Shown here: positions 7,019 to 60,208 of the stretch, one piece after another | Numbering within the stretch: position 1 is the stretch's first letter | How the letters are laid out: each line of letters opens with the position of its first letter | From: an uncultured Anaerolineae bacterium | Lineage (GTDB): Bacteria; Chloroflexota; Anaerolineae; Fen-1058 | Length of the DNA: 60,208 nt | NCBI GenBank assembly: GCA_964651475.1 | Contig: CAZYXV010000012.1 | Location: 64,001 to 124,208 of the forward strand | Reading direction: 5' to 3' | Program-made: the position numbers and the translations under genes | Notes under the pieces: model-generated | Database searches by the model: none | What the model saw: the letters and a program-made list of their open reading frames with translations, nothing else | Told to the model about the DNA's origin: nothing

Positions 7019-7095
7019 CGTTTATCTCCTTGATATGATATAAAGTACGTTTATATTCTACCCCAATTCAGCATCCCCGACAATAGGCCATTACC

Positions 7096-11460: not shown

Positions 11461-11463
11461 GGT

Positions 11464-12567
11464 TCACCGTCCTTTGCCCAAAAATGCCTTGATCGCGTCC
11501 AGGATGTCATCTCTGTCGTCGAGCCTGGCGACGACCAGTTGATCCTTGTCTGCCAGGTCGAGCCCTTTCAATGCCTCGGAAAACTGGCTGGCGCCATACG
11601 AACAGCGAACTTCGCCGTAGCAAAAGAGATTGACGCACGGCAAGATGCTTTCGGCCAGCAGGCGGGCGCACCGGGCGTTATCGTCTTCCCAGTTATCGCC
11701 GTCGGTGAATTGGAAGGGATAGATATTCCAGTCGTCGGGGTTGTAATCTTTTTCGATCATGGCCTGGCAAAGCTTGTAGGCCGAAGAAATGGCCGTGCCG
11801 CCGTTTTCTAGGGTGTGATAAAAGGCGTGTTGATCCACCTCGCGGGCGTTTACGTCGTGGATGATGTAGCGCACGTCTACTTTGTGATATTGTGAGCGCA
11901 GCCAGGTGTCAATCCAGAACACCGCCAGGCGGACGATCTCTTTTTTCTCGTCGTACATCGAACTCGAGACGTCCATCATGTAGATGATGGCCGCGTTGCT
12001 ATCGGGCATGTGATGGCTCTCCCACGAACGATAGCGCTTGTCCTCGCGCACCGGCATGACGTTAGGTTGAGCGTAGCTGTACATCCCCATGGCGATTTGC
12101 CGCTTGAGCGCCTCGCGATACGTGCGTTTAAAGTGGCGCAAGCTTTCTGGCCCGACGTGCCGGATGCCGGTGTAGCGATCCACGTAGCTTTCGATGTTCT
12201 CTTTGCCCTTGGGCTGGATGTTGGGCAGCTCCAGTTCGTCGCTCAAGAGATGGGCCAGTTCCTCCAGCGTCACCTCCACTTCCAAGATGTGGTCGCCGGG
12301 GTTTTGGCCGGCTCGCTCACCGGGCTGGTTGGGGTCAAAGCCGATGGGAGTGCCCGGCTCGCCGTCGCCTTGCCCCACGCCCCCCATCTGCTTGGCCCCA
12401 AAGCGAAATTGAGGGATCTGGATTTCTGGAACGGGGATGCTGACCAGGTCGCGCCCCTGGCGGCCGATCAACTCGCCGCTGCTTATGTATTTGCGCAGGC
12501 CGTCGCGCACTCTACCCTGCACGATGTGTCGGAAACGACTTTGATCTTGTTCAATTTTGGCGATCAT
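11464..12567 (-). CDS. YeaH/YhbH-family protein (DUF444, vWA-like)
   Basis: ORF 11464..12675 trimmed to the ATG at 12567, which follows a GGAGAGGAGG RBS. MIAKIEQDQSRFRHIV N-terminus and vWA-like core (IIYMMDVSSSM). Confidence 0.8.
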   Translation of the reverse strand: MIAKIEQDQSRFRHIVQGRVRDGLRKYISSGELIGRQGRDLVSIPVPEIQIPQFRFGAKQMGGVGQGDGEPGTPIGFDPNQPGERAGQNPGDHILEVEVTLEELAHLLSDELELPNIQPKGKENIESYVDRYTGIRHVGPESLRHFKRTYREALKRQIAMGMYSYAQPNVMPVREDKRYRSWESHHMPDSNAAIIYMMDVSSSMYDEKKEIVRLAVFWIDTWLRSQYHKVDVRYIIHDVNAREVDQHAFYHTLENGGTAISSAYKLCQAMIEKDYNPDDWNIYPFQFTDGDNWEDDNARCARLLAESILPCVNLFCYGEVRCSYGASQFSEALKGLDLADKDQLVVARLDDRDDILDAIKAFLGKGR

Positions 12568-12605
12568 GTCGCACCTCCTCTCTCCTCCGCGTGGCTGCAC
12601 GTTCT

Positions 12606-14645
12606 TTACGTCTTTCCCTTTGGATCCCCTCGAGCAAAGATACTGGCAACATAGTTCAACACGTCGGTGGCGCAAATATCGCAGTACCCATAGTTCTTGA
12701 TGAGGCGAGCCTTGACCACGTCAATCTTTTCTTGTGTTTCTTTATCCACGACGCTGGATACCAGGCTCGTCAACTTGATCGAATCTTTTTGATCCTCGAA
12801 CAGTTTGAGTTCCAATGCCTTGCGCAGCCGCTCGTTCGAATCCCACCGAAAGACGCGGCCATCAATGGCCAGGGCCGCGATATAGTTCATAATCTCGCGG
12901 CGAAAATCATCTTTGCGGCTTTCGGGGATTTCGATCTTTTCTTCAATCGAACGCATCAGGCGCTCGTCGGGTTCTTCGTCTTCGCCGGTGTAGCGGTTGC
13001 GCACTTTTTCGCGTTGAGTGTACGCTTTGATATTGTCAATATAATTCGCGCTCAGGCGAGAGATGGCGGCCTCGTCGGCGGTGATGGCGCGCTGCACCTC
13101 GGTCTTGACGATTTCGTCGTACTCGGCGCGCACCACGGCCAGCAACTCGCGATAGCGCGCGCGTTGCTCTTCGCTGGTAATCAGCGAGTGGTGCCTGAGT
13201 CCGGTTTCCAGTTCGCGCAAGACGACGAATGGGTTGAGGCAGCCATCAACCGCGCCGCTGACCAAAGCGTTCGACAGCTTGTCTTGAACATAGCGGGGCG
13301 ATATGCCTTCCATCCCTTCGCGCGCGGCTTCGTCTTGCAGCTCGCGCACGCTATCTTCGGTAAAGCCGGGGATATTCTTGCCATCGTAAAGCTTGAGCTT
13401 TTGCAACACCGTCAACCCGGCGTGCTTGGGTTCCTCCAGCCGGGTGAGGACCGCCCACAGGGCGGCCATCTCTACCGCGTGAGGGGCAATATGTTGGCCG
13501 ACGACCCGCTCGCCTCTAAAATCGCGTTCATAGATTTTGATCTCGTCGCTGTAACAGGTTACGTAAGGGATGTCCACCTTCATGGTGCGGTCGCGCAAAG
13601 CCTCCATGTACTCGTTGTTGAGTAGTTTGCGGTACTCGGGTTCGTTGGTGTGGCCGATGATGACTTCGTCAATGTCGGTCTGGGCGAATTTCTTGGGTTT
13701 GATCTTGTGCTCCTGCGAAGCGGTCAGCAGGTCGTACAGAAAGGCCACGTCCAGTTTGAGAATTTCGATAAACTCGACCAGCCCACGGTTCGCAATGTTA
13801 AGCTCGCCGTCAAAGTTAAAGGCGCGCGGGTCGCTATCCGAGCCGTACTCGGCGATCTTGCGGTAATTAATGTCGCCAGTCAACTCGGTCGAATCCTGGT
13901 TCTTTTCGTCCTTGGGTTGAAAAGTGCCGATGCCGAGCCTGTCTTTTTCAGATAAAATCAAGCGCCGCACGCGCACGTGCTCGACGACCCTGGTCCAATC
14001 GCCTTGATACTGCTTCATCAGGCGGCGGTACACAAAGCGGCAGGCCGGGCACAACTCGCCTTCGATGGCGATACGCTGCTCGGATGAGCGGGCCTCGTTC
14101 AGGCGGGCCAGCGCCGCGCCGCGAAACTCGACCGGAATGAGGTGGAGCGCTTCTTCGTGCATGGGGCAATCCAGGCGTTCCTGGTCTGGTATGTTGACCC
14201 AGCTCAGGGTATAGAGCGCGCCGTCGTCAGTTTGCGAGTAGGCCTCCAGGCCTTTCTTGAGCAGGCGGACGATGGTGCTCTTGGCGCTGCCGACCGGCCC
14301 GTGCAACAGGAGCACGCGCTTTTCGGTGCCGTACCGCCGCGCCGCCGATTCAAAAATTTGCACCAGTTGCATCAAGGGTTTGTCGAGACCATAGATGGCG
14401 TCCGCGCCGTGATCAAAAGGATCGTCGAAAAAGTTATAGTGGACGATGGTTTCTCGGTTGCGAGTGTACTCGCGGCTGCCGTAAGACAAGATCATGTCGT
14501 ATAGTCGCTGGTAGGCGCCGCAGGCAGCCTTGGGGTTGCGCTGGACAATGTCCAGGTACTCGGCAAAGCTGCCTTCCCAGTACTGCTCGCGAAACCTCTC
14601 GACGTCTTGTAACTCTCCAATCAATGAGATAAAAGTCTCGTTCAT
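12606..14645 (-). CDS. prkA: PrkA-family serine protein kinase (AAA+ N-domain)
   Basis: Walker [16 protein letters not shown], conserved PrkA AAA and C-terminal kinase-like regions. The start is taken at the ATG preceded by CAGGAGG, which is M9 of the listed ORF. Confidence 0.9.
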
Positions 14646-14672
14646 TTCCGCCTCCTGAAAACCGCTCAAAAT

Positions 14673-18485: not shown

Positions 18486-19817
18486 TTACAGATATTTGCT
18501 CTCCGCCTCGGTCAGCGCGTCTTCTAAAATTTCCAGCGCTTCGTCGGCCAAGTTCTTGGGCAGCATGAGAGGCGGCATAAAGCGCGTGGCGCTGCGCCCG
18601 CAGCCCAGGGTGAGGAGGCCGCGCTCGAAGCAGCCGTGCACCACGGCGTCGCGCAGGTCTTTGGCCGGCTCTTTGGTTTGCTTGTCTTTGATGAACTCGA
18701 TGCCAATCATCAGGCCCTTGCCGCGCACATCGCCAATCGAGGGATGGCGCATTTGGATCTCGGCCATGGCGTCCATCAAGTGCGCGCCTATCTCGACGGC
18801 GTTTTGCATGTAACCCTCTTCGATTAATTTGATCGTGGTCAGCGCGGCCGTGCAGGCCAGGGGGTTGCCGCCGTAGGTGTTGCCGTGCGCGCCGGGTTTC
18901 CACTTGTCAATGATTGAGGCGCGGGCGACCATCAGCCCCAGCGGCACGCCGCTGGCAATGCCTTTGGCCACGCACACGATATCCGGCTCGGTGCCCCAAT
19001 GCTCGATGGCCCACCACTTGCCGCTGCGTCCCACGCCGCTCTGCACTTCGTCGGCGATGAGCAGGATGCCGTACTTGTCGGCCAGCTTGCGCAGCTTGGA
19101 GAAAAAGTTGGGCGGCGGGACGATGTAACCGCCTTCGCCCTGGATCGGCTCGATAAGAAAAGCGGCTATTTCGTCGCCCGGAATGATATTGGCAAACAAG
19201 ACGTTTTCCAGGTAATTAATCACCGCGTCGCCCGTATCGCCGCCCGGCGGCGGGATGAGCACCGGGCGATACGGATCGGGGTAGGGGACGTGCGTCACGC
19301 CGGGCATGAGGGGAAAGAATCGCTCTTGCTGGGTGTACTTGCTGGCGGTAAAGGCCAGGCTGCCCATCGAGCGGCCGTGAAAGCCGCCCAAGAAGCCAAT
19401 AAAGCGCGGCCGCCCGGTGACGTAGCGCGCCAGCTTGATGGCGGCTTCGACTGACTCGGTGCCGGAATTGGCAAAGAACATGCGCACGTCTTCTTTCATC
19501 GGGGCGATCTCGTTTATCTTTTCGCCCAGGCGGATCATTGTATCGTGATAATAGTCCGACGAGATGTGGATGAATTTTTCGGCCTGCTGCTGGACGGCTT
19601 TGACGATTTCGGGATGCGCGTGCCCGGTTGAAAGCACGGCGATGCCGGCGGCAAAATCTATAAAGCGATTGCCGTCCACGTCCCAACATTCGGTGCCGCG
19701 GCCATAGTCCATCACAAACGCATAATCGCGCGGATACGAAGGCGAGGTGACCTTTTTATCGCGCGCAAGCATAGCCTGGGCCTTGGGGCCGGGCAGACTC
19801 ATTTTTTTGACTGACAT
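18486..19817 (-). CDS. gabT: Class III pyridoxal-phosphate aminotransferase (4-aminobutyrate aminotransferase-like)
   Basis: 443 aa. FIDFAAGIAVLSTGHAHPEIV, DEVQSGVGRSGKWWA and the GabT-like N-terminus (YPRDYAFVMDYGRGTECWDVDGNRFID). The gabT symbol is tentative. Confidence 0.8.
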   Translation of the reverse strand: MSVKKMSLPGPKAQAMLARDKKVTSPSYPRDYAFVMDYGRGTECWDVDGNRFIDFAAGIAVLSTGHAHPEIVKAVQQQAEKFIHISSDYYHDTMIRLGEKINEIAPMKEDVRMFFANSGTESVEAAIKLARYVTGRPRFIGFLGGFHGRSMGSLAFTASKYTQQERFFPLMPGVTHVPYPDPYRPVLIPPPGGDTGDAVINYLENVLFANIIPGDEIAAFLIEPIQGEGGYIVPPPNFFSKLRKLADKYGILLIADEVQSGVGRSGKWWAIEHWGTEPDIVCVAKGIASGVPLGLMVARASIIDKWKPGAHGNTYGGNPLACTAALTTIKLIEEGYMQNAVEIGAHLMDAMAEIQMRHPSIGDVRGKGLMIGIEFIKDKQTKEPAKDLRDAVVHGCFERGLLTLGCGRSATRFMPPLMLPKNLADEALEILEDALTEAESKYL

Positions 19818-20181
19818 TGCAAAACTCCTTTTTTAGCTCACAGATTCACACGGATGAACACGGATAATGTATAAAAATCCGCGTTACCCGCGACCAATCG
19901 GGAAACTCTACGATTATATAAAATTCAAAACGAGATGGCTCTGCATTGCAGAGTTAACGCGCAATCAAGTGCGGCGGAGGAGAGTTCACCTGTCAGCCGT
20001 GGAATGTTTAATGCGGGCGGCCCAGCGTAGGGCCTGGTCGTTGAGGAAATACATGGTATTACTGTGAAAAATTACTCGTATTACATAATCATCGCCGGGT
20101 AGGGTCCCTAGCCGACTGTATTGATTATACAACCCAATGGCGATTTTGTACACCCTTTCCTGGGGCGTAATTTCGTAACTC

Positions 20182-42576: not shown

Positions 42577-43974
42577 TCACAGATCGTTTGCCCGCAGCAC
42601 GCGATGGATGACGTCGCCCATGGTGTCCACCGCGGCTACCGGGCGGTGGAGCGCGGCGGCGATATCTTGCGGCGTCACGTCGTCCAGGCTCGCGCCGCTG
42701 GGATGATCGAACATGATGCGCGGCAACACCAGGCGCTCTCCCAGCTCGCGGCCTCGCAGTTGTTCGATGACGTCTTTCGCTGTGAGCAGCCCTGCCACCG
42801 TCACCGTTTCGCCAAAGCGGCGATTCACAATCGGGATCACCTCTATCCTGGCGCCGGTCAATGCGCTCAACTCGTCCGCGGCCTGGCGCAGCGTGGGCGC
42901 GAACAAGGTTCCGGTTACGAGCGAGATGTCGGATGTCTGATGTCTGATTTCGGATTTCGGATGTGGTCGGTGGCCGGCTTTCACTTGCCACTTTTTACTT
43001 TCTACTTTTAACTTTCCATTTTCCACTTTCCACTCGTCCAGAAACTCGCGCGCCATCCCCAGCCCGTTTTCTTGCAACTGCAGGCCGTCATAGTGAGCGC
43101 GGGGGGGAACGCGCCGCCCCAGGGCCAGGTACCACTCGTCGGTGGCGTACACAAAACGCGCGCCCAGTTCTGGCTTGAATTGTTTTTGCCAGGCGTGAAC
43201 GGACTGGAGCACGGCCTTCATTTCATCCGGCGTGTTGATGCGCTGGCCGCGTTTGTGGCAGCGCGTGATGCCGACCGGGACGATGCTGACCGAGCGCACG
43301 GCGGGATAGAGGCTTGCCAGGTCCAGGATGCTGCGCTCCAGAATCGCGCCGTCGTTCAGGCCAGGCGTGACGACCAGTTGCGTGTGCGTTTCGATGCCGC
43401 GCCGGGCCAGCCAGCGCAGTTGCCGCATCACGTCTGGGGCGTTGGGGTTGCCTAATACCTGGCGGCGCGCCTCGAGCGGCGTGGCGTGGACGCTGATGTA
43501 CAACGGCGATAGATGCTGCCGCTCGATGCGTTTCCAATCGCGCTCGCTCAGATTGGTCAGCGTGACGTAATGGCCGAACAAAAAGCTGTAGCGATAATCG
43601 TCGTCTTTGACGTACAGCGAGCGGCGCATGCGGGGCGGCATTTGGAGCACAAAGCAGAACGGGCACACGTTGTTACAGCGGCGAATGTCCGTATCGAACG
43701 TGGGGTGCGCAAATTCCAGCCCGAGCGTTTGACCGCCGCCGCGTTCGCCGCTCACGGTCAACTCGTCCGCGCCGCGCCGGAGGCGGAGTTCGACGTGCTC
43801 GTCGGCGGCGTAAAATTGCACGTCAATGATGTCTTGGACGGGGTGACGATTTACGGCTACCAGTTCATCGCCGGGACGCGCGCCCAGCTTTTCGGCCAGG
43901 CTGCCCGGCTCGACGGCGGTGATGCGCCCGCCCGGTACATGGTGTTTAGAGGTCACATGCTCTTTGTTTGGCAT
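42577..43974 (-). CDS. PDZ-domain / radical-SAM-like (CxxxCxxC) / DUF512-family protein carrying an in-frame low-complexity insertion
   Basis: 465 aa. N-terminal PDZ (ITAVEPGSLAEKLGARPGDELVAVN), CNNVCPFC Cx3Cx2C, DUF512-like C-terminal region. Codons about 315-350 are encoded by tandem heptanucleotide repeats. Confidence 0.7.
   Translation of the reverse strand: MPNKEHVTSKHHVPGGRITAVEPGSLAEKLGARPGDELVAVNRHPVQDIIDVQFYAADEHVELRLRRGADELTVSGERGGGQTLGLEFAHPTFDTDIRRCNNVCPFCFVLQMPPRMRRSLYVKDDDYRYSFLFGHYVTLTNLSERDWKRIERQHLSPLYISVHATPLEARRQVLGNPNAPDVMRQLRWLARRGIETHTQLVVTPGLNDGAILERSILDLASLYPAVRSVSIVPVGITRCHKRGQRINTPDEMKAVLQSVHAWQKQFKPELGARFVYATDEWYLALGRRVPPRAHYDGLQLQENGLGMAREFLDEWKVENGKLKVESKKWQVKAGHRPHPKSEIRHQTSDISLVTGTLFAPTLRQAADELSALTGARIEVIPIVNRRFGETVTVAGLLTAKDVIEQLRGRELGERLVLPRIMFDHPSGASLDDVTPQDIAAALHRPVAAVDTMGDVIHRVLRANDL
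42925..43032. repeat. Two blocks of degenerate heptanucleotide tandem repeats inside the radical-SAM/DUF512 ORF
   Basis: + strand GATGTCG GATGTCT GATGTCT GATTTCG GATTTCG GATGTGG (6 units), a 10-nt spacer, then CTTTCAC TTGCCAC TTTTTAC TTTCTAC TTTTAAC TTTCCAT TTTCCAC TTTCCAC (8 units). Total 108 nt = 36 codons, frame preserved. The - strand units are GGAAAGT-like and CGAAATC-like. Confidence 0.6.
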
Positions 43975-50326: not shown

Positions 50327-50587
50327 ATGGGCAGAATCAGCACACGCGGCAGGCTTACAATATTGCTTGGGCAGCGCCAGGCGCTCACCGGTGAGCGGCT
50401 ATCGCTGCGCCGCCTGGCGGATCTGGCCGGCGTGCCCAAAGATTTGATCTATCGCCTGGATGCCGGCCAGGCGCGTTATGTTGACTTGGATGCGCTGGCG
50501 CGTTTGTGCCGCGCGCTGGAATGTAACCCGAGCGATATTCTGGTTTGGAGCAGCGATGGTCAATCCGCCGGCCCACAATCCGTTTGA
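50327..50587 (+). CDS. XRE-family (Cro/cI-type) helix-turn-helix transcriptional regulator
   Basis: 86 aa from the first ATG. HTH LSLRRLADLAGVPKDLIYRLDAG and the common C-terminal LCRALECNPSDILVW motif of small XRE proteins. Its 3' end overlaps the jetA start by about 30 nt. Confidence 0.7.
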   Translation: MGRISTRGRLTILLGQRQALTGERLSLRRLADLAGVPKDLIYRLDAGQARYVDLDALARLCRALECNPSDILVWSSDGQSAGPQSV

Positions 50588-51992
50588 TATTCTTCCAGCC
50601 AATTTATTCAACCCCTTCAGCACACAGGGCTATGGCAACCTGGCCCGCCACTATATGGCGATCCTTTTGCGCATCTATGCGTTGGCCGAGTTCAACCGCT
50701 TTGGCCTGACGCGCCAGGTCGTGATAGCAGACATTGTGGATTACCTGGCTGCCGAGGGCGCGGAAGAAGCGGTGGCCGCGGCAATGGGTGAGGGAACGGG
50801 CGAACCCGCCGCTTCGATTACGGTGCAATCCGCGCAAGATTACGCCGGGTATTTGCTGCGCCGCCTGGTCGAGACGGGTTGGATCGAGCGCGAGCAGCAC
50901 GCCGATTACACCGAATACATCGTCTTGCCCGATTACGCTTTTACGCTGTTGGAAGCCTTTCGCGCTATCCAGGAGCAAAAGCCGCGCGAGTATACGGGCC
51001 AATTGTATACCGTGCACCAATTGCTCACGCACGAAGACGAAAATTTCGCGCCCGCGCTGGCGCTTACACAAGCCTACGAGAACGTGCGCCAGGTCGTGCG
51101 CGGGTTGAACGAGTTGAATCACAACATTCGCCGCTATATTGAGCGCGCCACGCGCGGGCGCGACGTGGCCGAACTGCTGCGCTTGCAGTATGACGATTAC
51201 GCCTCGGCGCTTGGCCCGGCTTATCACGCGCTCAAAACCTCTGATCACGTGTCGCGCTATCGGCGCGATATTATCAACCAGCTTCAAACTTGGCAGGCCG
51301 ATAGCGAATGGCTCGACCGCGCCGCCGACGAATTGGCGACGCAGGCGCGCATCACGCCGGCCCAGGCCTCCGGCGAGATCAGCCACTATATCCGTTTCAT
51401 CACACAGCAATTGGAAAGCCTCGACCCGCTGCTGGACGAGATTGACCGCCGCCACGCGCAATATCTGCGCACCTCGCTGCGCCAGATTCGCTACCAGTTG
51501 ACAAGCGACGATGGCAGCTTTAAGGATCGGCTGGTTTCGTTGGCGCGGCGGCTGGCGGCGCTGCAAGAAGAAGGCTTGTCCGAGTTGCCGGAAGATGCGC
51601 CCGGTTTGCAGCATTGCCCCATTCGCCTGCCCGACGCCAATAGTTTTTACACCATGCCGCAGCGCCGCGCCCCGTTTGAAACGGGAGATATCCAATTGCC
51701 GACGCTTCACCCGCTGGACGTGGCCGCCTTGCGCGCGACCACTCTGCAAGAAGTGACCCAGAGCATTTCGCCGGACAAGATCAATCGCTTTGTGTGCCAG
51801 TTCCTCAACGGCAACCGGCGCATCCACGTGACCGCGCTGCCGCCCGACGCGCTGGGCAATGTGCCCTGGCTGCTCTATACGATTGCCTACAGTTTCCATC
51901 CCGAAGTGAACTATGGCATTCAAGTCACACCGGGCGAGCCGGTGCAGGTGGGGCCGTATCGGATGGAGCCGTTTGATTTGGTAAAGCTGTGA
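50556..51992 (+). CDS. jetA: Wadjet system protein JetA (MksB-like, DUF3375-type)
   Basis: Listed ORF 50460..51992 trimmed to the ATG (MVNPPAHNPFDIL...) preceded by GGAG. 479 aa and helical, in an operon with JetB, JetC and JetD homologues. Family assignment rests on size, synteny and remembered family features. Confidence 0.7.
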   Translation: MVNPPAHNPFDILPANLFNPFSTQGYGNLARHYMAILLRIYALAEFNRFGLTRQVVIADIVDYLAAEGAEEAVAAAMGEGTGEPAASITVQSAQDYAGYLLRRLVETGWIEREQHADYTEYIVLPDYAFTLLEAFRAIQEQKPREYTGQLYTVHQLLTHEDENFAPALALTQAYENVRQVVRGLNELNHNIRRYIERATRGRDVAELLRLQYDDYASALGPAYHALKTSDHVSRYRRDIINQLQTWQADSEWLDRAADELATQARITPAQASGEISHYIRFITQQLESLDPLLDEIDRRHAQYLRTSLRQIRYQLTSDDGSFKDRLVSLARRLAALQEEGLSELPEDAPGLQHCPIRLPDANSFYTMPQRRAPFETGDIQLPTLHPLDVAALRATTLQEVTQSISPDKINRFVCQFLNGNRRIHVTALPPDALGNVPWLLYTIAYSFHPEVNYGIQVTPGEPVQVGPYRMEPFDLVKL

Positions 51993-52678
51993 TATCGCGT
52001 ACTGCGCAAGACGTAATTACGCAGTACGACATACGGAGAGCGTCAATGCCCTTTGACTGTGAAACGATTTTAGAGTCCACCGCTCTGCCCGACAAATCCC
52101 GCCGCGACGTACCGCGCGTGGTGAACCGCTTGTTGGGCCAGACCTTTTTGCATCAAGATGTGGAGACCGACAAGGATGATTATTACTTTGTCCATCGCCA
52201 CCGCGATGCGTTTGAGACCTTGCTGGCGCTGGCCGGATTCAAATTATTGCACGACGATTATCACCGCATCTTTCAGGCCGTGTCCGAGTTTAGCTATTGC
52301 CGCGCGCATTATCGGCTGGACGAGACGCTGATGATCGTCGTCTTGCGCAAGCTGTACCAGGAGCGCGCCGAACAGCTCAACCTGGCGGCCGACCCGGCGG
52401 TGACGGTGGGCGAAGTGCGCGAAGAATATCGCACCATCACCGGCAAAGAGCGCGACCTGGGCATTATGCAATACGAAGCCATTCTGCGCCACCTGCGCGC
52501 GTTGGGGTTGGTAGACACATTGGATGGCCGCACGATTGACGTGCGCAACAGCGAAACTCGCTTGCGTCTGCGCGGGTCCGTGCGCATGATCCTGCCGGTG
52601 CAGTCGGCGGACGAGATGGAGGTGTGGTTGCGCAAGTATCGGGTGGCGGGAGTGAGCGCTGAACCGGAAGAGGAGTAA
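51989..52678 (+). CDS. jetB: Wadjet system protein JetB (MksE-like, DUF4194-type kleisin-like subunit)
   Basis: 229 aa. ATGA start/stop overlap with jetA. Acidic C-terminal tail. Size and position match JetB/MksE. Confidence 0.7.
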   Translation: MISRTAQDVITQYDIRRASMPFDCETILESTALPDKSRRDVPRVVNRLLGQTFLHQDVETDKDDYYFVHRHRDAFETLLALAGFKLLHDDYHRIFQAVSEFSYCRAHYRLDETLMIVVLRKLYQERAEQLNLAADPAVTVGEVREEYRTITGKERDLGIMQYEAILRHLRALGLVDTLDGRTIDVRNSETRLRLRGSVRMILPVQSADEMEVWLRKYRVAGVSAEPEEE

Positions 52679-52681
52679 CCC

Positions 52682-55600
52682 ATGAAACAACTCACTCGCA
52701 TCCGCCTCATCAACTGGCATTTGTTTGAAAACGCCGCCATCTCGTGCAACGGCACGACCTACTTTATCGGCGTCAACGGCGCGGGCAAGTCTACGATCCT
52801 GGACGCGATCCAGTTCGCGCTGGTGGGCGGGCAGCGCGAGGTCAAGTTTAACCAGGCGGCGCTGGCCGGCGGCAAGCGCACGCTCGCCAGTTACGTGCGC
52901 GGCGAACTGGGCACCGAAGGTCAGCGTTTTTTGCGCGACGACGCGACCGGCGTGGTGGCGCTTGAATTTCGCAATCCCGATAATTCGTACTTTGTGCACG
53001 GCGCGGTGATTGATGCTTATGCCGATGGCCGCGCGCCGGAGGTAATGTATTTTATCGTCAACAATGCCGCGCTCGACGATGGCTGGTTTTTTCGCGAGTC
53101 TCCCATTTCACCCTCTGCGGGGGCTTGCGGGACAGGCGGCAAGCTGTTTGACACGCGCGCCTTCAAGCGCCATCTAGAACATTTCGCTCTGCCCACGGGC
53201 GGGCGCGCCCAGGCCTTTGGCCGCCTGGAAGATTACCGCTTTCATTTGCTCAATCGCCTGGGCCAGCTCAAAGACACTTTTCCGGCCAAGATTGTCAAAG
53301 GGTTGGCCTTTAGCCCGCTCATCAATATCCGCGAATTTGTCCACAACTATTTGCTGGACGAAAACCTGGTGGACGTGAAAACATTGCAAGATCAACTGGA
53401 AACGCTGCGCCACTTTGAAGCGCTGGCGGCCAATGTGCGCGAGCGGATTGCGGCGCTGGACCACATTGAGGAATTGGATCAGGAACGTGTAGCGAATCGC
53501 CGCCGCCGCCTGACCAACGGCCACATTCAACGCCGCGCGCGGGGCGATACACATCTGGCCCAGCTCAAACGCTTTCGCCTGGAATTGGAAGAAGCGCGCG
53601 TCGAGTTGTCCCGCGCTGCGCTCAAGCGCGACATTTTGGACCAAGACCTCAAGCGCGCCCGCCAGGCCTTGCTCGACGCGCAGGTGGCGCTGCAAACCGA
53701 TGCGACCGCGCTGCGCGAAAAAGAATTGCGCGACAAGATTGCCTCTCTGGAAAATGAGGCGCGCGCGCTGGCCGAACGCGAGGCGCGCGTGACTGAAACA
53801 TTGGCCCGCGAGGTCCAAGATGCGCAGATATTGCGTCAATGCCTCGTCAAAGATCGCATGTCTATTCCGCCATCATTAGATGAATTCATTCAATCTGATC
53901 AAAGTGTGGATTGCATTGTCCGGCTGCAAGCCGACTTGGAAATTTTGGGGCACACGTTTGCCGAACAAAACGCATTGTTGGGTGAACAGTCGCGTCGATT
54001 GCGCGACGAGGCCGAGCAGTTGCAGCGCGAGATCGTACAACTGCGCACGGGTGACCGCGACGCCAGCTACGAGGCCGAAGCGCCCGAAGCCGCCCGCCTG
54101 CGTCGCCTGTTGCGCGCCGAGTTGGGGTTGGGCGCAGACGAGGCCGTGTTTCTATGCACCGTTTTGCAAATCCCTGATGAATCCTGGCAAGACGCGGTTG
54201 AGGGCGTATTGGGCAACACGCGCTTCAACTTGCTGGTGCCGCCTGAACATTACGACGCCGCGATGCGGCTTTACCGCGAGCGCCGCCACGCGGACAATTT
54301 GCACGGGGTCGGCCTGCCGGACATTGAGCGAATCTTGAGTCGAACGGGCCAGACAGGTGTTTCGCAAAACCTGTCAGGTCTGGCAAGTGAGGTTCAAACG
54401 CAGCACGCGGGCGCGCGCGCATTGGTAGATTTGCTGCTGGGCCACGCGGTCAAATGCGATACGTTGGACCAGTTGCGCGAGCATCGCACCGCCATAACGC
54501 GCGAGTGTTTTTTGCGCCGCAACTATACCACCAGCCACATGAATCCGCGCGTTTACCGCCGCTGGTTCATCGGCGACCGGGCCGTGCCGCGCCAGATCGA
54601 GCAGCGCGAAGCCCGGCTCGAAGAGATTCGCGCCGAATTGCTGGCGCTGCAAGATCAAGCCAGCGCACTGCGCGAACGCCTGGCGCTCACTCGGGACAAG
54701 ACGCGCCTGTACTTTGACCTGGAACGCGACCTGGACGAGTTGGCGAGCCTGCCCGTCAGAACGGCGCAACTGGCCGCGCTGCAAGACGAGCTATCGCGCC
54801 TGGATACGCAAACCATTGAGGCCCTGCGCGCGCAAGTTGACGCGCGCCGCGCGCAGGCTGACGGTTTGCAAGCCGAGCTTTCGGAATTGGACAAGCATAT
54901 CGGCGGAGTGGACATGCGCGCCAAGACGTTGAATGACGAAACCATTCCCACCGTGGAGCGCGAGGCCGATCAGGCCGCGCAAAGCGCGCTGGCCTTTTTG
55001 CGTTTTGAGCAGGCCGAGGATGCGCTGGACGAGGTCAACAAGGAATATGAACGCCGCCGGGAACGGCAGCCGCTCGAAACTGTGCTGCAAAACGCCACGC
55101 GCTACGAAAGCGAATATCAAAGCGCCGAAACGCGCAGCCGCGACCGCTTGCGCGAGGCCAAGCAAGCCTATAGCCTGAAATACGATTTCGGTTACGACGA
55201 GGACGAAGACGCCGCGCGTTACGTCCGCGAGCGCGACAAGTATATGCAGTCGGAACTGCCGCAGTACGAGGAGCGCATTACGGCGCAGCGCAAGTTGGCC
55301 GAGCAAGAACTGGTGGAAAATTTCATCCATCGCCTGCGCGAACAGATCGAAGACGCGCGCCAGCAATTGGGGCATCTCAATACCACGCTGGCAGGACTGC
55401 GCTTTGGCGGCGAGCGCTTTGAATTTATCACGCGCCCCGAACCCACGCTGCGCCCGGTGTACGATATGGTGATGGACAGCCAGGAGGTTTTGGGCAAATC
55501 ATTGTTCGAGTCCGATTTTCGCCAAAAGCACCAGCAGGGCTGGGATGTGTTGTTCGAGCATTTAACGGTGGGGCAGGCCGGTGATGCCGCCGTGGAACTG

Positions 55601-56032
55601 CGCCAATTGCAGGATTACCGCAACTATTTGCAGTACGACATTCGCATCCACTATCCCAATGGCGACCACGCGCTGCTCAGCCAGATCAACGCCAAAAAAT
55701 CCGGCGGCGAAACGACCACGCCGTTTTACGTGGCCATGGCGGCCTCGTTCGCGCAAGCCTATCGCCTCAACCAGCCGCGCGCCTCGGACACCATCCGGCT
55801 GGCGTTGTTCGACGAAGCATTCAGCAAAATGGATACGGCCCGCACCGCCAGCGCGCTCAAGTTTATGGTCGAGACGCAATTGCAAGTGCTGCTGGCGACG
55901 CCGCCCGACAAGGCGACGGGACTCTTGCCTTACGTGGATTGTGTGCGGACGGTGGTGCGCAAGGATAATCACTCGTTCGTCATCGAAATGGACAAGGCTG
56001 AGCTGGTGGGCGAGTTGGAACGTACTGCGTAA
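52682..56032 (+). CDS. jetC: Wadjet system protein JetC (MksF/MukB-like SMC-family ATPase)
   Basis: 1116 aa. N-terminal Walker A FIGVNGAGKSTILDAIQFAL, very long Arg/Glu/Leu/Ala/Gln-rich coiled-coil arms, C-terminal ABC signature KSGGETTTPFYVAMAASFAQ and Walker B RLALFDEAFSKMD. Confidence 0.85.
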   Translation: MKQLTRIRLINWHLFENAAISCNGTTYFIGVNGAGKSTILDAIQFALVGGQREVKFNQAALAGGKRTLASYVRGELGTEGQRFLRDDATGVVALEFRNPDNSYFVHGAVIDAYADGRAPEVMYFIVNNAALDDGWFFRESPISPSAGACGTGGKLFDTRAFKRHLEHFALPTGGRAQAFGRLEDYRFHLLNRLGQLKDTFPAKIVKGLAFSPLINIREFVHNYLLDENLVDVKTLQDQLETLRHFEALAANVRERIAALDHIEELDQERVANRRRRLTNGHIQRRARGDTHLAQLKRFRLELEEARVELSRAALKRDILDQDLKRARQALLDAQVALQTDATALREKELRDKIASLENEARALAEREARVTETLAREVQDAQILRQCLVKDRMSIPPSLDEFIQSDQSVDCIVRLQADLEILGHTFAEQNALLGEQSRRLRDEAEQLQREIVQLRTGDRDASYEAEAPEAARLRRLLRAELGLGADEAVFLCTVLQIPDESWQDAVEGVLGNTRFNLLVPPEHYDAAMRLYRERRHADNLHGVGLPDIERILSRTGQTGVSQNLSGLASEVQTQHAGARALVDLLLGHAVKCDTLDQLREHRTAITRECFLRRNYTTSHMNPRVYRRWFIGDRAVPRQIEQREARLEEIRAELLALQDQASALRERLALTRDKTRLYFDLERDLDELASLPVRTAQLAALQDELSRLDTQTIEALRAQVDARRAQADGLQAELSELDKHIGGVDMRAKTLNDETIPTVEREADQAAQSALAFLRFEQAEDALDEVNKEYERRRERQPLETVLQNATRYESEYQSAETRSRDRLREAKQAYSLKYDFGYDEDEDAARYVRERDKYMQSELPQYEERITAQRKLAEQELVENFIHRLREQIEDARQQLGHLNTTLAGLRFGGERFEFITRPEPTLRPVYDMVMDSQEVLGKSLFESDFRQKHQQGWDVLFEHLTVGQAGDAAVELRQLQDYRNYLQYDIRIHYPNGDHALLSQINAKKSGGETTTPFYVAMAASFAQAYRLNQPRASDTIRLALFDEAFSKMDTARTASALKFMVETQLQVLLATPPDKATGLLPYVDCVRTVVRKDNHSFVIEMDKAELVGELERTA

Positions 56033-56057
56033 TGCGTATTGCGTAAGGGCGTGCGTT

Positions 56058-57398
56058 ATGTCATCTCCAGCTTTTGTTCCCTCCCCTGATGTGAGCGCCA
56101 TCCTCCACGCGCTGCTGGATATTTGCGAGCGGCGCAATTTGCCTTCATTCCTTCGGCTTCGCTCCCTGGCCTGCCGTCCAGGGCAGGCAGGCCAGGCCTC
56201 GTCCCTTCCAGGTGTGGGAGAGGGAAAAGTAATGTACCGAACGATTCGCTGTGACGTGCAGGCCATGACGTTGCCTGGCTATCACAGCCAGGTTGATCCC
56301 AATCCGCGCCAGGTCGCCAACGAGCAGTTGACGGCGTTGGAACAGCAAGGCTATGTGCGTTTGATTTGGCTGCCGGGCCAGGAAAACCACTTGCTTGCTT
56401 CCATTTTGCTCGCGCCTGAATGCGCTGACGAACTATTCGCCTGGCTGAACCGCACACCCCTTGCCGCGCAACGAGCCTCTCTGCGCGACGTGCTGCTCGG
56501 CGAACGCTTTCGTTTTAAAGATTGGCGCTTGCGCGCAGTGGAGCACACGCTGGCCCAATTGCGCGAAGGCAAATCGCCCGCGCCATTCAGCCTGACCGAT
56601 CAAGATTTCAACCGCGACGTGTTGACGGCGCTGCGCGCATTGAGCGAGGTGCGCGAAGAAACGCCTTATCGGGTTTTTAGCGTGCGCGTGTTCAATGACA
56701 GCAAGCGCTTCGAGTTGCTCAAAGGCGCGCTGGTCACATTGGCGCGGCGCCATCAAGCCGAGTGGACCGACCTGTCCGATGGCGAGTTGTTGCGCGAAGT
56801 GGGCCTGGTGGCAAATCCGAACCACCTGTATTTGTACGGCCCCTGGCGCTTGGTGGATGAGAGCGGTCAGGTTCTTTCGCTGGGCGAATTTTATCCGTCG
56901 GTTGGTGTGCCGGCGGCGCAGGCTGCGCGCGTACAGCATGTGGATGTTGCCGCTGCTTCCCGCGTGGTGTGCGTGGAAAATCAGACGACGTTTTACGAAT
57001 TGGTGCGCCGCGAAAGCGAGGGATTGGCGGCGCTGTGCTTGTGGGGCAATCCGTCCCCGGCTTGCCGGCACTTGTTGCGCTGCCTGATCCAGACTTGCCC
57101 GGAGCATGTACCCTTGTTGGTGTGGGCCGACCTGGATTACGGCGGGCTAAACATCCTGGCGCAACTGCGCAAAATCAGCCCGCGCTTCCAGCCATACCGC
57201 ATGGACATTCCCACGCTCGACGCACACGCGTTGTGGGGCAAGCCGCTCACCCGCGCCGACGAGAAAAATCTGACGCGCCTGGCGCAGCATCCGTTGCTGG
57301 CCGATATGCGCCCGGTTATCGAGCACATGCTGGCAAGGGGAATCAAGTTGGAACAGGAAGGGATTCCGGCGGCGGGCCAGGTTCCGCTAGCGAGATAA
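56058..57398 (+). CDS. jetD: Wadjet system protein JetD (MksG-like; DUF2220/Toprim topoisomerase-VI-like nuclease)
   Basis: 446 aa from the ATG 26 nt after the jetC stop; an alternative ATG lies at about 56232. C-terminal Toprim-like motifs VCVENQTTFYEL (E) and LLVWADLDYGGLNIL (DxD). Confidence 0.8.
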   Translation: MSSPAFVPSPDVSAILHALLDICERRNLPSFLRLRSLACRPGQAGQASSLPGVGEGKVMYRTIRCDVQAMTLPGYHSQVDPNPRQVANEQLTALEQQGYVRLIWLPGQENHLLASILLAPECADELFAWLNRTPLAAQRASLRDVLLGERFRFKDWRLRAVEHTLAQLREGKSPAPFSLTDQDFNRDVLTALRALSEVREETPYRVFSVRVFNDSKRFELLKGALVTLARRHQAEWTDLSDGELLREVGLVANPNHLYLYGPWRLVDESGQVLSLGEFYPSVGVPAAQAARVQHVDVAAASRVVCVENQTTFYELVRRESEGLAALCLWGNPSPACRHLLRCLIQTCPEHVPLLVWADLDYGGLNILAQLRKISPRFQPYRMDIPTLDAHALWGKPLTRADEKNLTRLAQHPLLADMRPVIEHMLARGIKLEQEGIPAAGQVPLAR

Positions 57399-57572: not shown

Positions 57573-58076
57573 ATGTCAGACTCGATCCTGATTGCTTATG
57601 CGACACGTTATGGTTCCACGCAAGAGGTCGCCGAAAAGGTCGCGGCGACGCTGCGGGAAGGCGGCCTGTCGGTGGATGTGCAACCCGTCAAACAAGTGCG
57701 GACGTTGGACGGCTACCGCGCGGTGGTGGTGGGCGCGCCGTTGTATATGTTCGATTGGCTCAAAGAGGCGCGCGACTTTATATCACGGCACCGCGCGGCC
57801 CTGGCGACGCGGCCCGTGGCGGTTTTCGCCCTCGGCCCGACCGAGGACAAGCAGGAAGACTGGACGGAAACACGGAAGCAACTCGACAAGGTGCTGTCCA
57901 AATTCCCCTGGTTGTCTCCGGTCGCCGTGGAGTTGTTTGGCGGCAAGTTCGACCCGACCCGGTTGACCTTTCCCTACAACCTGGTTCCGGGCCTTAAACG
58001 GATGCCCGTAAACGACATCCGCGATTGGGACGCCATTCGCGCCTGGGCCAACAGTTTGCCCGAAAAGCTCGCCTGA
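57573..58076 (+). CDS. Flavodoxin-like domain protein
   Basis: 167 aa. ILIAYATRYGSTQEVAEKVAATL flavodoxin N-terminal signature, AVVVGAPLYMFDW. AAAGGAGAAACC RBS. Confidence 0.65.
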   Translation: MSDSILIAYATRYGSTQEVAEKVAATLREGGLSVDVQPVKQVRTLDGYRAVVVGAPLYMFDWLKEARDFISRHRAALATRPVAVFALGPTEDKQEDWTETRKQLDKVLSKFPWLSPVAVELFGGKFDPTRLTFPYNLVPGLKRMPVNDIRDWDAIRAWANSLPEKLA

Positions 58077-58340
58077 GACATGTTGGCGCGCCGCTCCGGC
58101 ATTTCGAGCCGCCGCTTGCCGGCGACCTCGATTTGGCCGCGCCCTGCGTGCCCACCGGCGTGACGCCCATCAGCACGTACCCGCTCACATTCACCCGCAC
58201 CCCATGGTGAGTGTAAGCCGCGTTGAGGAGGGTAGCCGGCGCGTCGCTGGCCGTGAAGCACATCCCCAGCACCGTCCCGCCCCCTGAGTTGTTGAACCCC
58301 GCCAGGCATATCGGCAACATCACCAACGCGCCCCGCAAAA

Positions 58341-58463
58341 AAGCCCAACACGAATTTGCTCACGGATGGCACGGATGACACGGATTAGGGGGCGCGCCTT
58401 TCCATGTGTCCGTGCCACGCGCAACGTCCGTGTTGGGCTGCTGCATTGCTCTCAGTGGGTCAG
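58341..58463. repeat. Copy A of a roughly 120-nt structured repeat (three CATCCGTG units)
   Basis: AAGCCCAACACGAATTTGCTCACGGATGGCACGGATGACACGGAT...GTCCGTGTTGGGCT...CTCAGTGGG. GCCCAACACG pairs with CGTGTTGGGC. Homologous to copy B at 60022-60140. Confidence 0.5.
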
Positions 58464-58536
58464 TAGCTCATTCTCACTTACCGGGAAGAGGCAACAAATA
58501 AGAGCCTTATTTGAATATTTGAGACTAACCAAAAGG

Positions 58537-58761
58537 CTATTTTTTCTCCATCTGGAGCAATGTCATAAGACTCAAAATATTCACCAACAGAAATCCTATA
58601 TCTAACATGATCAAACTTACAATGCTGCGCCGTTTAGTTTCAGTTATAGCCTCACTATTTTGTTGAGCATGGTTGATTTTCCATAGGCTTAGAGCGCCAT
58701 AACAAAGAGAAGCAAGATTTATGATCCATGCTGTCAAGAGCAATATCCAAAAGAGGGTCAC
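58537..58761 (-). CDS. Small two-TM membrane protein; candidate immunity protein for the upstream Rhs toxin domain
   Basis: 74 aa. MTLFWILLLTAWIINLASLCYGALSLW...IVSLIMLDIGFLLVNILSLMTLL. Very low GC. Starts 58 nt downstream of the Rhs CT stop, on the same strand. Confidence 0.4.
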   Translation of the reverse strand: MTLFWILLLTAWIINLASLCYGALSLWKINHAQQNSEAITETKRRSIVSLIMLDIGFLLVNILSLMTLLQMEKK

Positions 58762-58819
58762 TTTGTGTCTCCGTACATTTATTTATAATTGGCCAGGTCT
58801 TTTCAAACTTGAAATAGAC

Positions 58820-59977
58820 TTATCGGGAAATAAGTGGCATAAAGACATTGTGACTACCTGTTGTATCCCGATGAATCAAGCCATCCAGTTCTGACCATGT
58901 CCAGAAAGCCTCCGCGGCAAGACTGCCCACAGGCCCCACACGGACTTGTGTCCGGGTAGTTGTACCCTCTGATGTTTCCACTGTTAATCGGTCCATAAGT
59001 ATATTAGTTTCCCAAGTTACACTACCACCATTTCCCATAGGATCGTTGGCGTGCAAATCCGCCAAAGCATTCCGTAAGTTTGACTGGTCATATGATGTAG
59101 CCGCCACATCGACGCCAAATGCAATCCCGGCTGGTCCGGCAGCAGCAGGTAGTGTCAGCCCAAGTGCTTGTAATACGGTTATGGCAGACTTGCCAAATAC
59201 CGTTGTCAGTATCGCCATTACGAGCCCTCCTTTGCTAGTTTGGTCTAAGGAGCCAATAAGTCTTTGAGCATCTTGAGGGGAAAGTTGCCGTTTGTAGACT
59301 GTAACCATTGGCACGGTATCTATCTCTTGCTGGATGTCGACCTTGCCTCCATTCATTCCCTTTCGGGCAAAATAGTCCGCCCAGCTTTCGTCGGTACTTT
59401 TGTCTCCCCAATCAACGTGACCTTCAATCCCGCAACTGCCGCCAGCGGTTTCGCCACACTCGCTCGCATGGCCTGTGGGGTCAACATATTTGACAGGATT
59501 ATTCAGGGCATAAGCATACCTGTTCAGCGATTGCGGGTTCCCCGGACTTGGGACAATCGTATCCGCGCTGAGGAACCGTCCCACGCGGGGCGAGTACATT
59601 CTTGCCCCATAGTCGTACAACGAGCCAAGCCCGGCCTCTGATCTCTGGCCTGTATACCGCAAGTCGGTTGGTAGAGAGCCGCTGGCCCACCTCGACTCGC
59701 CCCAGGGGGTGTACAGTTGCCGCGAGTGCTCCACCCCGCTGGAGGTAGCGGCTACGCTGGTGCTGCCCAGGTGATCCCCCAGTAAAAAGCCTGCCCTGGG
59801 CTGCGCCCAGCGCAGGCCAGGGTATACCACATTTGCAGTGGGGGTTTGCGTGCGCACGGCCACGCGCGTGCTGCCTGCGTAATAGTAGCTGCGCCAGGTG
59901 ATGCCATTGGGCGGCGTGACCGCCGCGGCTGGCGCGGCATTGCCGGAGCGGGGCTGCTCGCGCACAGGGGCGGTCAC
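58820..59977 (-). CDS. Orphan Rhs/YD-repeat protein C-terminal module: core end plus polymorphic toxin C-terminal domain
   Basis: Rhs core terminus ...YTPWGESRW...DLRYTGQRSEAGLGSLYDYGARMYSPRVGRFLSADTIVPSPGNPQSLNRYAYALNNPVKYVDPTGH, then about 215 aa of unrecognised low-GC C-terminal domain. No ATG start: the frame opens at a stop at about 60005 and begins GTG/Val directly after repeat copy B. Confidence 0.7.
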   Translation of the reverse strand: MTAPVREQPRSGNAAPAAAVTPPNGITWRSYYYAGSTRVAVRTQTPTANVVYPGLRWAQPRAGFLLGDHLGSTSVAATSSGVEHSRQLYTPWGESRWASGSLPTDLRYTGQRSEAGLGSLYDYGARMYSPRVGRFLSADTIVPSPGNPQSLNRYAYALNNPVKYVDPTGHASECGETAGGSCGIEGHVDWGDKSTDESWADYFARKGMNGGKVDIQQEIDTVPMVTVYKRQLSPQDAQRLIGSLDQTSKGGLVMAILTTVFGKSAITVLQALGLTLPAAAGPAGIAFGVDVAATSYDQSNLRNALADLHANDPMGNGGSVTWETNILMDRLTVETSEGTTTRTQVRVGPVGSLAAEAFWTWSELDGLIHRDTTGSHNVFMPLISR

Positions 59978-60021
59978 GGCTTGTGAGTGATGGGGTGACT
60001 TGCGTCACACGCCTGCCAGAG

Positions 60022-60140
60022 AAGCCCAACACGGATTTGCTCACGGATGACACGGATTGAAGCGCGCCCGTCCGTGTAATCGTGTCCGCGTGTACTAACG
60101 TGCATAACCGTATTGGGCTAGAGGGTTGCCCTCAGTGGCG
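60022..60140. repeat. Copy B of the roughly 120-nt structured repeat (two CATCCGTG units)
   Basis: AAGCCCAACACGGATTTGCTCACGGATGACACGGATTGAAGCGCGCC...CCGTATTGGGCTAGAGGGTTGCCCTCAGTGGCG. The outer stem is preserved with a C:G to U:G change relative to copy A. Confidence 0.5.
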
Positions 60141-60208
60141 TTAGCGTCTTCAGCTTTCTCTACCGTACATTTTATACTTGAGGGCAGCGTTGGGTCCGGG
60201 GTAGCGTA

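Follow-up and report, generated by a model that had tools for sequence, protein, structure and literature searches.

Towards the end of a contig from an uncultured Anaerolineae bacterium, a low-GC Rhs toxin/immunity module is bracketed by two copies, A and B, of a quasi-palindromic intergenic repeat. The DNA analysed here is a 60,208-nt stretch of this contig (CAZYXV010000012.1, positions 64,001 to 124,208), hereafter the window, and coordinates refer to it unless another locus is named. The building block of the repeat is the heptad CACGGAT, which reads ATCCGTG on the other strand. A and B are apparently local copies of a widespread, undescribed element that is made of arrays of three such units. 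This element marks the ends of Rhs toxin modules in Anaerolineae-type loci and fills the gaps between genes in many uncultivated phages. As a tentative reading, to which we give less than even confidence, we propose that A and B are 3'-end hairpins that act after transcription and are built from binding sites for a conserved factor, for which CsrA is the candidate.

Two copies of a heptad-based hairpin bracket an Rhs module

Copies A and B, which lie 1681 nt apart as direct repeats, share about 80% identity, and their best block matches at 34 out of 36 positions. An earlier note on this DNA, made by a model from the letters alone, had claimed two genuine repeat copies, and pattern search, MAFFT, nhmmer and repeat search all confirmed this. 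In the window, a 28-nt pattern (AAGCCCAACACGGATTTGCTCACGGATG) matched only at 58341 (one mismatch) and 60022 (no mismatches), and shuffled sequences gave no match. The repeat search returned a 51-nt pair with 84% identity, nhmmer aligned 58327-58459 to 60007-60139 with an E-value of 8e-12, and the MAFFT alignment had 173 columns with a mean column identity of 80% and indels of 11 nt and 9 nt. The repeat extends beyond the limits first given to it (58341-58463 and 60022-60140). The whole repeated units lie on the - strand at about 58326-58480 for copy A (repeat search, MAFFT, 28-nt pattern, nhmmer and folding) and 60007-60160 for copy B (the same methods except folding).

On the + strand, the heptad array of A (58361-58385) has CACGGAT at 58361, 58370 and 58379, a spacing of 9 and 9, and that of B (60030-60057) has it at 60030, 60042 and 60051, a spacing of 12 and 9. 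Beside its three contiguous units, A also has a degenerate one, CACGAAT, at 58350. Three units had previously been counted in A and two in B. The difference of one 9-nt unit is real, but the counts are three in B and three plus the degenerate unit in A. CACGGAT occurs nine times on the + strand of the window and never on the - strand: three times each in A and B, twice at 19833-19891 and once in isolation. The exact 8-mer CACGGATG is found twice in A and once in B. Both copies consist of two inverted arrays of three to four heptads apiece that flank a GC-rich centre, and one strand thereby forms an imperfect hairpin some 95 nt long. On the - strand, copy A reads from a leader (CCACTGAGAGCAA) through the degenerate CACGGA units of the left arm to the centre (GGCGCGCC), past which lie the right arm of three ATCCGTG, the outer stem and TTTTTT.

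The hairpin spans 96 nt in A (58343-58438, - strand) and 95 nt in B (60024-60118, - strand). Its outer stem in A has 12 pairs, between GCCCAACACGAA (58343-58354) and TCCGTGTTGGGC (58427-58438), while in B GCCCAAC from 60024 pairs with CCGTATTGGGC at 60108-60118. Each of the four single strands of A and B folds better than 200 out of 200 shuffles, with z-scores from -3.5 to -5.5; the strongest value is that of the - strand of A (-32.4 kcal/mol, z = -5.5). As RNA, the Rhs-sense strand folds at -56.0 kcal/mol in A and -42.3 in B, versus -52.6 and -38.8 for the antisense strand. Between A and B the outer stem differs by two one-sided changes and no two-sided change. The stem change that had been described as compensatory is a single one-sided transition, which leaves G-U on the - strand and C-A on the + strand. 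As this difference is a wobble, seen in just two sequences, it does not constitute covariation.

The cargo between A and B has the make-up of an orphan Rhs toxin/immunity module, in which an Rhs core leads into a variable C-terminal domain and a small open reading frame (ORF) lies downstream. The Rhs C-terminal fragment (58820-59977, - strand) contains the Rhs-associated core TIGR03696 at residues 89-170 (E-value of 7.3e-23) and, past it, a C-terminal domain of about 215 aa. This domain has no relative except in an identical protein (P0001, 100%); the other homologues of the fragment cover residues ~24-183 and not the C-terminus. Next comes a hydrophobic 74-aa ORF (58537-58761, - strand, from the ORF list), which has no family match and which, from its position after the toxin, is the probable immunity gene. 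An exact copy of this ORF is present on Logan contig L005, found in 14 samples. GC content drops to 37-50% across the module. Orphan Rhs arrays likewise have a 5'-truncated core, a novel C-terminal domain, a small downstream ORF and low-GC DNA. In contrast to this locus, classical ones repeat the core-coding sequence only (L014, L015), and descriptions of them do not usually include a structured non-coding repeat at the 3' boundary.

Copy A lies 74 nt past the 74-aa ORF, between the module and a convergent flavodoxin gene, and a gap of 44 nt separates copy B from the Rhs-fragment ORF downstream of it. Each copy had been described as lying directly 5' of a toxin-module ORF on the - strand. The ORF that was assigned to A (57994-58338) is probably no gene: it matches no family, resembles no Rhs protein and overlaps with the flavodoxin gene, which is convergent. 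The stop codon of an ORF that continues past the contig end lies within copy B; a search with the 37-aa peptide of this ORF found no match. The contig ends 48 nt past 60160, or 68 nt past 60140 (60141-60208). Logan contigs of the same population break at 58162/58171 and at 59600, the latter being the start of the conserved Rhs core. Together with the contig end, these breaks are consistent with repeats or strain variation at these positions.

Our first idea was that A and B are attC sites, either of a chromosomal integron or of a cluster of attC sites that has no integron-integrase (CALIN), in which the Rhs C-terminal domain and the immunity gene would form a gene cassette. The outer stem GCCCAAC...GTTGGGC of copy A fits RYYYAAC...GTTRRRY, with boxes on the - strand of GCCCAAC/GTTGGGC in A and GCCCAAT/GTTGGGC in B. 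Like attC sites, the copies are imperfect palindromes (95-96 nt) that are repeated along the locus, 1.7 kb apart and each after ORFs. Two sites at this distance would agree with the formal definition of a CALIN as two attC sites within 4 kb (PMC4889954), and integrons occur in Chloroflexi. However, the related hairpins described below drop the R boxes, with GTTGCAC, GTTGTCC and GTTGCCT in their place, and those of L017 and L014 have no left-arm AAC. Instead of an unpaired central spacer, 12-13 consecutive pairs run through the spacer position. Similarity between A and B continues for about 17 nt past R', into the would-be next cassette, and the conserved feature is the internal heptad, which is also found as single arrays in phages. 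No tyrosine recombinase was found in the 58 kb to one side of the module, nor anywhere in the window, L014, L017 or L024, by tblastn with an approximate IntI1 query. Relatives without the boxes, a continuous stem and the failure to find an integrase led us to reject attC sites as highly improbable.

Related hairpins occur at other Rhs loci

Four further hairpins were found at three other Rhs loci. In L017 (JGI), the element at 2076-2167 lies 38 nt after a 252-aa gene that follows the Rhs toxin. In L024, it is found at 2712-2812, on the 3' side of the Rhs module. L014 (GCA_040961635.1) has two, at 4733-4837 and 8942-9049, each after a pair of Rhs and immunity genes. These elements share an architecture that comprises the leader CACTGAG-G-GCA, CGGAT arrays, a centre rich in GCGCGC and ATCCG arrays. 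In place of ATCCGTG, they have ATCCG(T/C)T as the unit. As their sequence similarity to A and B is below significance, we infer homology from architecture and position. All six hairpin copies sit 3' of the gene that follows the Rhs toxin and are read in the Rhs direction. The RNA fold is stronger on the Rhs-sense strand in all six, by 3.1-8.8 kcal/mol, and G-U pairs are commoner on that strand in five of them. When aligned, the six copies have a common inner hairpin of 14 pairs, of which only two show changes on both sides.

A covariance model of the six hairpins found only those six in 415 kb of Rhs loci, apart from a match in L030 that we rejected, as it lies in coding sequence. Among 80 loci with relatives of the Rhs core at up to 62% identity, only L024 carried the element. 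In 50 kb of non-Rhs DNA around glmS, from three related Thermoflexales-type genomes, there were no arrays of at least three CGGAT units. The window itself contains a third heptad array at 19833-19891 on the + strand, with CACAGAT, CACGGAT and CACGGAT (spacing 10 and 10) and one inverted ATCCG. The array is upstream of a class-III aminotransferase gene (19817..18486, - strand), 16 nt from its start codon, and matches the six-copy covariance model weakly (E-value of 6.5).

Several sequences adjoining these elements were noted in passing. Directly after the element in L017, at 2168-2674, is a coding sequence for fibronectin type III repeats that lacks its 5' part, so this element abuts a truncated gene. 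In L024, a 107-aa YD-repeat ORF (2400-2723) lies between the immunity gene and the element and has its stop codon in the first bases of the element; uvrA is the next gene past it. Both L014 hairpins are followed by a conserved tail of about 42 nt (TTGCCTCAACAYC..TTCGYYGGTCACGTGGCCTGC, at 4819-4860 and 9031-9072), the second half of which occurs again without a hairpin at ~5545-5570, after a hicA-like gene and before the next Rhs fragment. In the window, a tandem with a period of 7 nt and a CGGAT core (GTCGGATG TCTGATG TCTGATT TCGGATT TCGGATG) is present at 42920-42965, within or at the end of an ORF at 42577-43974 (- strand).

The earlier note would have dismissed A and B if no further copies and no covariation were found, or if the copies proved to be coding. 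Neither outcome arose: related hairpins and hundreds of heptad arrays exist, with covariation almost absent, and the copies are not coding, with stop codons present in the frames across them. These same observations bear on the explanation that A and B were left behind by a segmental duplication or belong to a coding sequence. In its favour, the window has no more than two full copies, and long patterns derived from them, among them one of 25 nt, had no matches in genome, metagenome and viral collections. A gapped pattern of the stems only gave eight matches, which were unrelated and mostly coding. Yet neither the intervening nor the surrounding DNA is duplicated, and both the stop codons and the relatives elsewhere speak against it, so we give this explanation next to no credence.

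Another explanation is that the repeat is a recombination site, or a patch of homology, at the 3' boundary of exchangeable modules, for which the Rhs core would provide the 5' homology. Toxin/immunity modules, and likewise genes in phages, would then be swapped or deleted. The two direct repeats exactly bracket the low-GC module, the hairpin form recurs 3' of Rhs modules in four loci, and the phage arrays described below are found at gene boundaries, where flanking genes differ between related phages. A recombination hot spot for switching Rhs modules had already been suggested in the earlier note. The enrichment of the hairpin 3' of Rhs modules lends that suggestion only indirect support, and the unit also occurs upstream of the aminotransferase gene and between phage genes. 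Furthermore, no recombinant junction or alternative module was seen, and L005, present in 14 samples, has the identical junction. Classical orphan Rhs arrays such as L015 are without the element, an array of 30 nt is at the lower limit for homologous recombination, and there is no site-specific recombinase nearby. As recombination would also leave the conservation of the heptad unexplained, we consider it distinctly unlikely.

Heptad arrays are widespread in phages

To place the heptad in a wider context, IMG/VR viral contigs were scanned for arrays of ATCCGTG and, likewise, of control heptads, with counts given as stretches per spacing. ATCCGTG gave 89 stretches at 9/9 spacing, 74 at 10/10 and four at the spacing of copy B (9, 12), whereas the controls ATGCCTG, GTGCCTA and ATCCGTT gave zero, five and eight. 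Most control matches were perfect decamer tandems, with identical spacers in 8/9 and 6/8 cases; this was so in only 23 of 93 ATCCGTG arrays. The heptad is thus kept while its spacers drift, which suggests that it is held by selection. Exactly three units were present in 177 of 217 distinct arrays. Most arrays carry the tail GTTAAAAT, and both spacing classes end in GTTAA(A/C)AT. Periods of 9, 10 and 12 coexist in the family. Across its dialects the invariant core is CGGAT, in which C and T are fixed, and the preceding 'A' varies.

Inverted pairs of arrays have a strict polarity. The order 5'-(CACGGAT)n..(ATCCGTG)n-3' was found 151 times within 150 nt, versus never within 100 nt and eight times at 100-150 nt for the reverse order. 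The 5' arm of a transcript would therefore contain GGA motifs whichever strand is read. Among the viral loci, L101, L201, L203, L205 and L237 have full palindromes like A and B. The 166 viral loci represent 116 nucleotide clusters, and the commonest protein family occurs in only 13 loci. We looked for a shared phage-encoded regulator among these 166 loci and found none. With 116 clusters and no common phage protein, the evidence speaks for a reader encoded by the host, or for no reader, and we consider that a trans-acting factor is probably host-encoded.

No match to the heptad array was found in GenBank phages or in the searchable literature. No paper was found that carries the heptad string: the only hits were primers and, for CACGGAUGAA, papers on Csr/Rsm. 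Rfam gave no match at gathering score in the window, none at A or B up to an E-value of 10 (57900-60208) and none in ten viral loci; this includes the Csr/Rsm families for the window and these ten loci. The earlier impression that the repeat matches nothing recognised therefore holds. An intergenic decamer array was observed on a plasmid of Gloeothece citriformis PCC 7424 (NC_011738; L264 1495-1560, ~291170-291235), which reads CACAGATGAA CAGGGATGAA CACGGATAAA TGTAGATAAA. The unit hence also occurs outside Chloroflexota and phages.

Conserved units with variable spacers may also be sites at which a multimeric protein binds double-stranded DNA. In that case, A and B would form head-to-head operator arrays that silence or regulate the adjacent module, or would serve as roadblocks. 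A winged-helix regulator that reads tandem heptads, in the manner of OmpR/PhoB, SARP or CtsR proteins, would suit this reading. In the operators of these proteins and of the omega-repressor of pSM19035, 7-bp units are repeated with a period of ~10-11 bp. Like them, the arrays described here have conserved 7-bp units, two to several in number, in direct or inverted order; unlike them, they are spaced at 9, 10 or 12, have no known cognate regulator, and lie within operons without room for a promoter. Intergenic motifs are also known from phages, namely the stoperators of cluster A mycobacteriophages, which would be the model for a roadblock, and the start-associated sequences of cluster K. These too are present in many copies per phage, in short gaps beside translation starts and with an orientation bias. 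However, each is restricted to a single cluster of phages, and it is a phage repressor that reads stoperators, whereas the heptad, found in a bacterial chromosome as well as in 116 unrelated clusters, comes without a phage protein common to these clusters.

The three heptads at a 9-10-bp period, with conserved units and free spacers, are in line with DNA binding, as are the presence of both orientations relative to genes and the majority of single arrays that cannot form a hairpin (160/204 without a left arm). Inverted pairs are strictly head-to-head around an often AT-rich spacer. Some arrays lie right after a terminator and before the next gene (L202, L185), and, read by eye, the array at 19.8 kb lies between a possible -35/-10 pair and the ribosome-binding site of the aminotransferase gene. 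Conversely, periods of 9, 10 and 12 bp in one family would place units on different faces of the helix. Such specificity is rarely conserved across phages as diverse as these 116 clusters, in which no common DNA-binding protein was found, and tight phage operons leave no promoter space beside the array. Neither the 2:1 orientation bias described below nor the sense-strand folding bias at Rhs loci would be expected. We judge DNA binding unlikely on balance, yet to be taken seriously. Of the three options raised in the earlier note (a structured RNA, a recombination hot spot or an iteron-type protein-binding site), the last is the best supported, as a short unit is conserved across genomes and phages while its spacers vary.

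Arrays lie in the gaps between phage genes

The viral arrays are mostly intergenic, and the functions of the adjacent genes are mixed; in L099 and L196, for instance, arrays flank the capsid and protease genes. Where both flanks could be assigned, the sense strand read CACGGAT in 50 cases and ATCCGTG in 30, or 26 versus 11 for tightly flanked arrays. Contigs may carry several copies, such as six in L174 and four in L211. Five of the six L174 arrays lie roughly 2-25 nt before a Shine-Dalgarno-like sequence and start codon; for the sixth, no start was evident. A palindrome in L174 (2527-2625) encloses, between and within its arms, a Shine-Dalgarno sequence, an ATG and a mini-ORF of nine codons (MRPIIRENP*), which resembles a leader-peptide arrangement. 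Between closely related phages, an array block of 28-40 nt may be cleanly present in one and absent from another (L113/L188 versus L160, and L185 versus L158), and unit number varies as well (L232 versus L228). No target-site duplication was detected at two such filled and empty sites.

Such differences between related phages could point to a selfish, non-autonomous mobile repeat, similar to a REP sequence or a miniature inverted-repeat transposable element (MITE), whose ends would each carry three subterminal units and of which A and B would be insertions or remnants. Besides the presence or absence of blocks, the variation in unit number and the multiple copies per contig, the conserved tails of inverted pairs face outward (AAC-CACGGAT... 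/ ...ATCCGTG-GTT), like transposon ends. Copies are found beside truncated genes (the fibronectin type III repeats of L017, the YD repeat of L024 and the Rhs fragment after B), and the assembly breaks right after B. What speaks against mobility, beyond the missing target-site duplication, is that the majority of copies, being single arrays of ~35 nt, have just one 'end'. There is no transposase between paired arrays, with L196 having a head protease there, and no tyrosine recombinase in the window, L014, L017 or L024. Thus, although inverted arrays are present, the features of a MITE are otherwise lacking. Density in sampled host DNA is low (3 arrays in 60 kb, none in another 50 kb), and heptads that are kept while spacers drift indicate selection on each copy. 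We assign mobility a minor share of the probability.

REP/BIME, ERIC, Correia and REPIN sequences are similar to the element in being short, imperfect intergenic palindromes that often lie just after stop codons. Like the element, such repeats also occur as single units and inverted doublets; they cause assembly breaks and can end or stabilise transcripts. They differ from the heptad element, which has no GTAG head and arms consisting of arrays of three direct heptads instead of a small palindrome. No REP-associated tyrosine transposase was seen, although no search for one was made. REP sequences run to hundreds of copies per genome. The heptad arrays are abundant in phages and of low density in sampled host DNA.

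A possible post-transcriptional role

We return to our tentative proposal that the hairpins of A and B act after transcription. Lying just 3' of the Rhs toxin/immunity module and read in its direction, the element would act on the transcript of the module, provided that transcription passes through it. The hairpin may end the mRNA or protect it, and may insulate the module from its neighbours. In copy A, the hairpin is directly followed by a run of six T (58337-58342, - strand, read from the sequence), a terminator-like layout for the Rhs/immunity transcript. The stem-loops of A and B are much longer than those of usual terminators, and a terminator scan made no call there; at A, this is explained by a loop that exceeds the limit of the scan. 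Deletion or exchange of the module across the ~135 nt of homology between the two direct copies could be a side effect of the arrangement, a consequence and not its purpose.

The heptads would be recognition sites for a conserved trans-acting factor, for which the sequence offers a CsrA/Rsm-type RNA-binding protein as the sole candidate. This candidate is suggested by CACGGAUGAA, since RsmE, a member of the CsrA family, binds an hcnA RNA that has this sequence as its core. The hcnA RNA in the RsmE complex (PDB 2JPP) is GGGCUUCACGGAUGAAGCCC, and the 10-mer of the arrays is identical to its core. On the GGA strand, the unit consensus (A)ACACGGAUGAA contains this 10-mer. CsrA is present in most phyla, and csrA has been reported in Chloroflexota metagenome-assembled genomes. 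Like CsrA/Rsm sites in the hcnA leader and in the CsrB and RsmZ sponges, the arrays have several close A(N)GGA motifs, with three CACGGAU per array. The consensus also fits the CsrA SELEX core, ACARGGAUG, at eight of nine positions. Arrays in phage operons are mostly sense and lie shortly upstream of Shine-Dalgarno sequences, also like known sites; single arrays, such as those before Shine-Dalgarno sequences in L174, are unstructured.

In other respects the heptad family is unlike CsrA/Rsm sites, as its triplets are regular at 9-10 nt, with a fixed tail and a CGGAT core. A number of observations weigh against our proposal. The invariance of CGGAT is not what the CsrA consensus would predict. 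The GGA motifs of A and B lie within a long stem, and CsrA sites are typically in loops or single-stranded, with one of them overlapping the Shine-Dalgarno sequence. The perfect CACGGAT units in A, B and the 19.8-kb array are antisense to the Rhs and aminotransferase genes, so that an Rhs-sense transcript would have only degenerate ACGGA or AUGGA units. About one third of the viral arrays are likewise antisense to their flanking genes. An inverted array is present in only 44 of 204 viral arrays, the others being the single arrays without a left arm, and viral palindromes show no sense-strand folding bias (9 versus 11). A clear U-tract is found only in A: B has UUCUCU, and L017, L024 and both L014 copies have no T-run. 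The six sense-strand folding results are not independent, since A and B are related to each other, as are the two L014 copies. The similarity of the L017, L024 and L014 elements to A and B does not reach nhmmer significance, and csrA did not turn up in the 2 Mb of loci retrieved.

As for the structured RNA considered in the earlier note, the balance is weakly positive: the hairpin is real and the sense-strand bias extends to six of six copies, whereas covariation is almost absent and most members of the family are hairpin-less. The broader claim, that the CACGGAT triplet with its GTTAAAAT tail is a widespread cis-regulatory signal, common to many unrelated uncultivated phages and to horizontally acquired toxin modules of Chloroflexota and read on RNA by a conserved CsrA-type host factor, seems to us rather doubtful. 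If it were correct, phage genes and toxin modules would plug into the global post-transcriptional control of the host, and the hairpin version would be a 3'-end or attenuator structure sensitive to that factor. By our own comparison, several other known signals were dropped for poor fit, namely sigma-70 and extracytoplasmic function (ECF) promoters, DnaA boxes, Chi, uptake sequences, the T7 class II terminator (ATCTGTT), the consensus pause element and complementarity to the 16S 3'-end.

Genomic surroundings

The flavodoxin gene and the Rhs module are directly preceded by a complete anti-plasmid Wadjet system (JetABCD), encoded upstream on the + strand at 50460-57398. Its genes are JetA (50460-51992), JetB (~52046-52678), JetC (52682-56032) and JetD (~56232-57398). 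With Wadjet beside the Rhs module, the contig end looks like a defence/toxin island. Elsewhere, the window encodes a PASTA-domain kinase (3213-5132), two tandem histidine ammonia-lyase paralogues (5495-8673) and a PrkA/SpoVR gene pair (9979-14669, - strand), a set in keeping with a Chloroflexota-type genome. Its GlmS is 83% identical to a protein from a 'Thermoflexales bacterium', and lower matches were named Anaerolineae or Chloroflexota.

Implications

The above results show that the repeat is not private to one rhs locus, but is one dialect of a short sequence code that seemingly has no name. Its pattern, (ATCCGTG + 2-3 nt)x3 followed by the tail, offers an easy marker for annotators, which may also help to connect phages with their hosts. 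If the element is mobile or serves recombination, it would be a new class of small repeat and would influence both the mosaicism of phages and Rhs toxin turnover. If instead a host factor reads the heptads, they would show how foreign DNA is wired into the regulation of Chloroflexota, a phylum with almost no genetics that is nonetheless dominant in wastewater and sediment communities.

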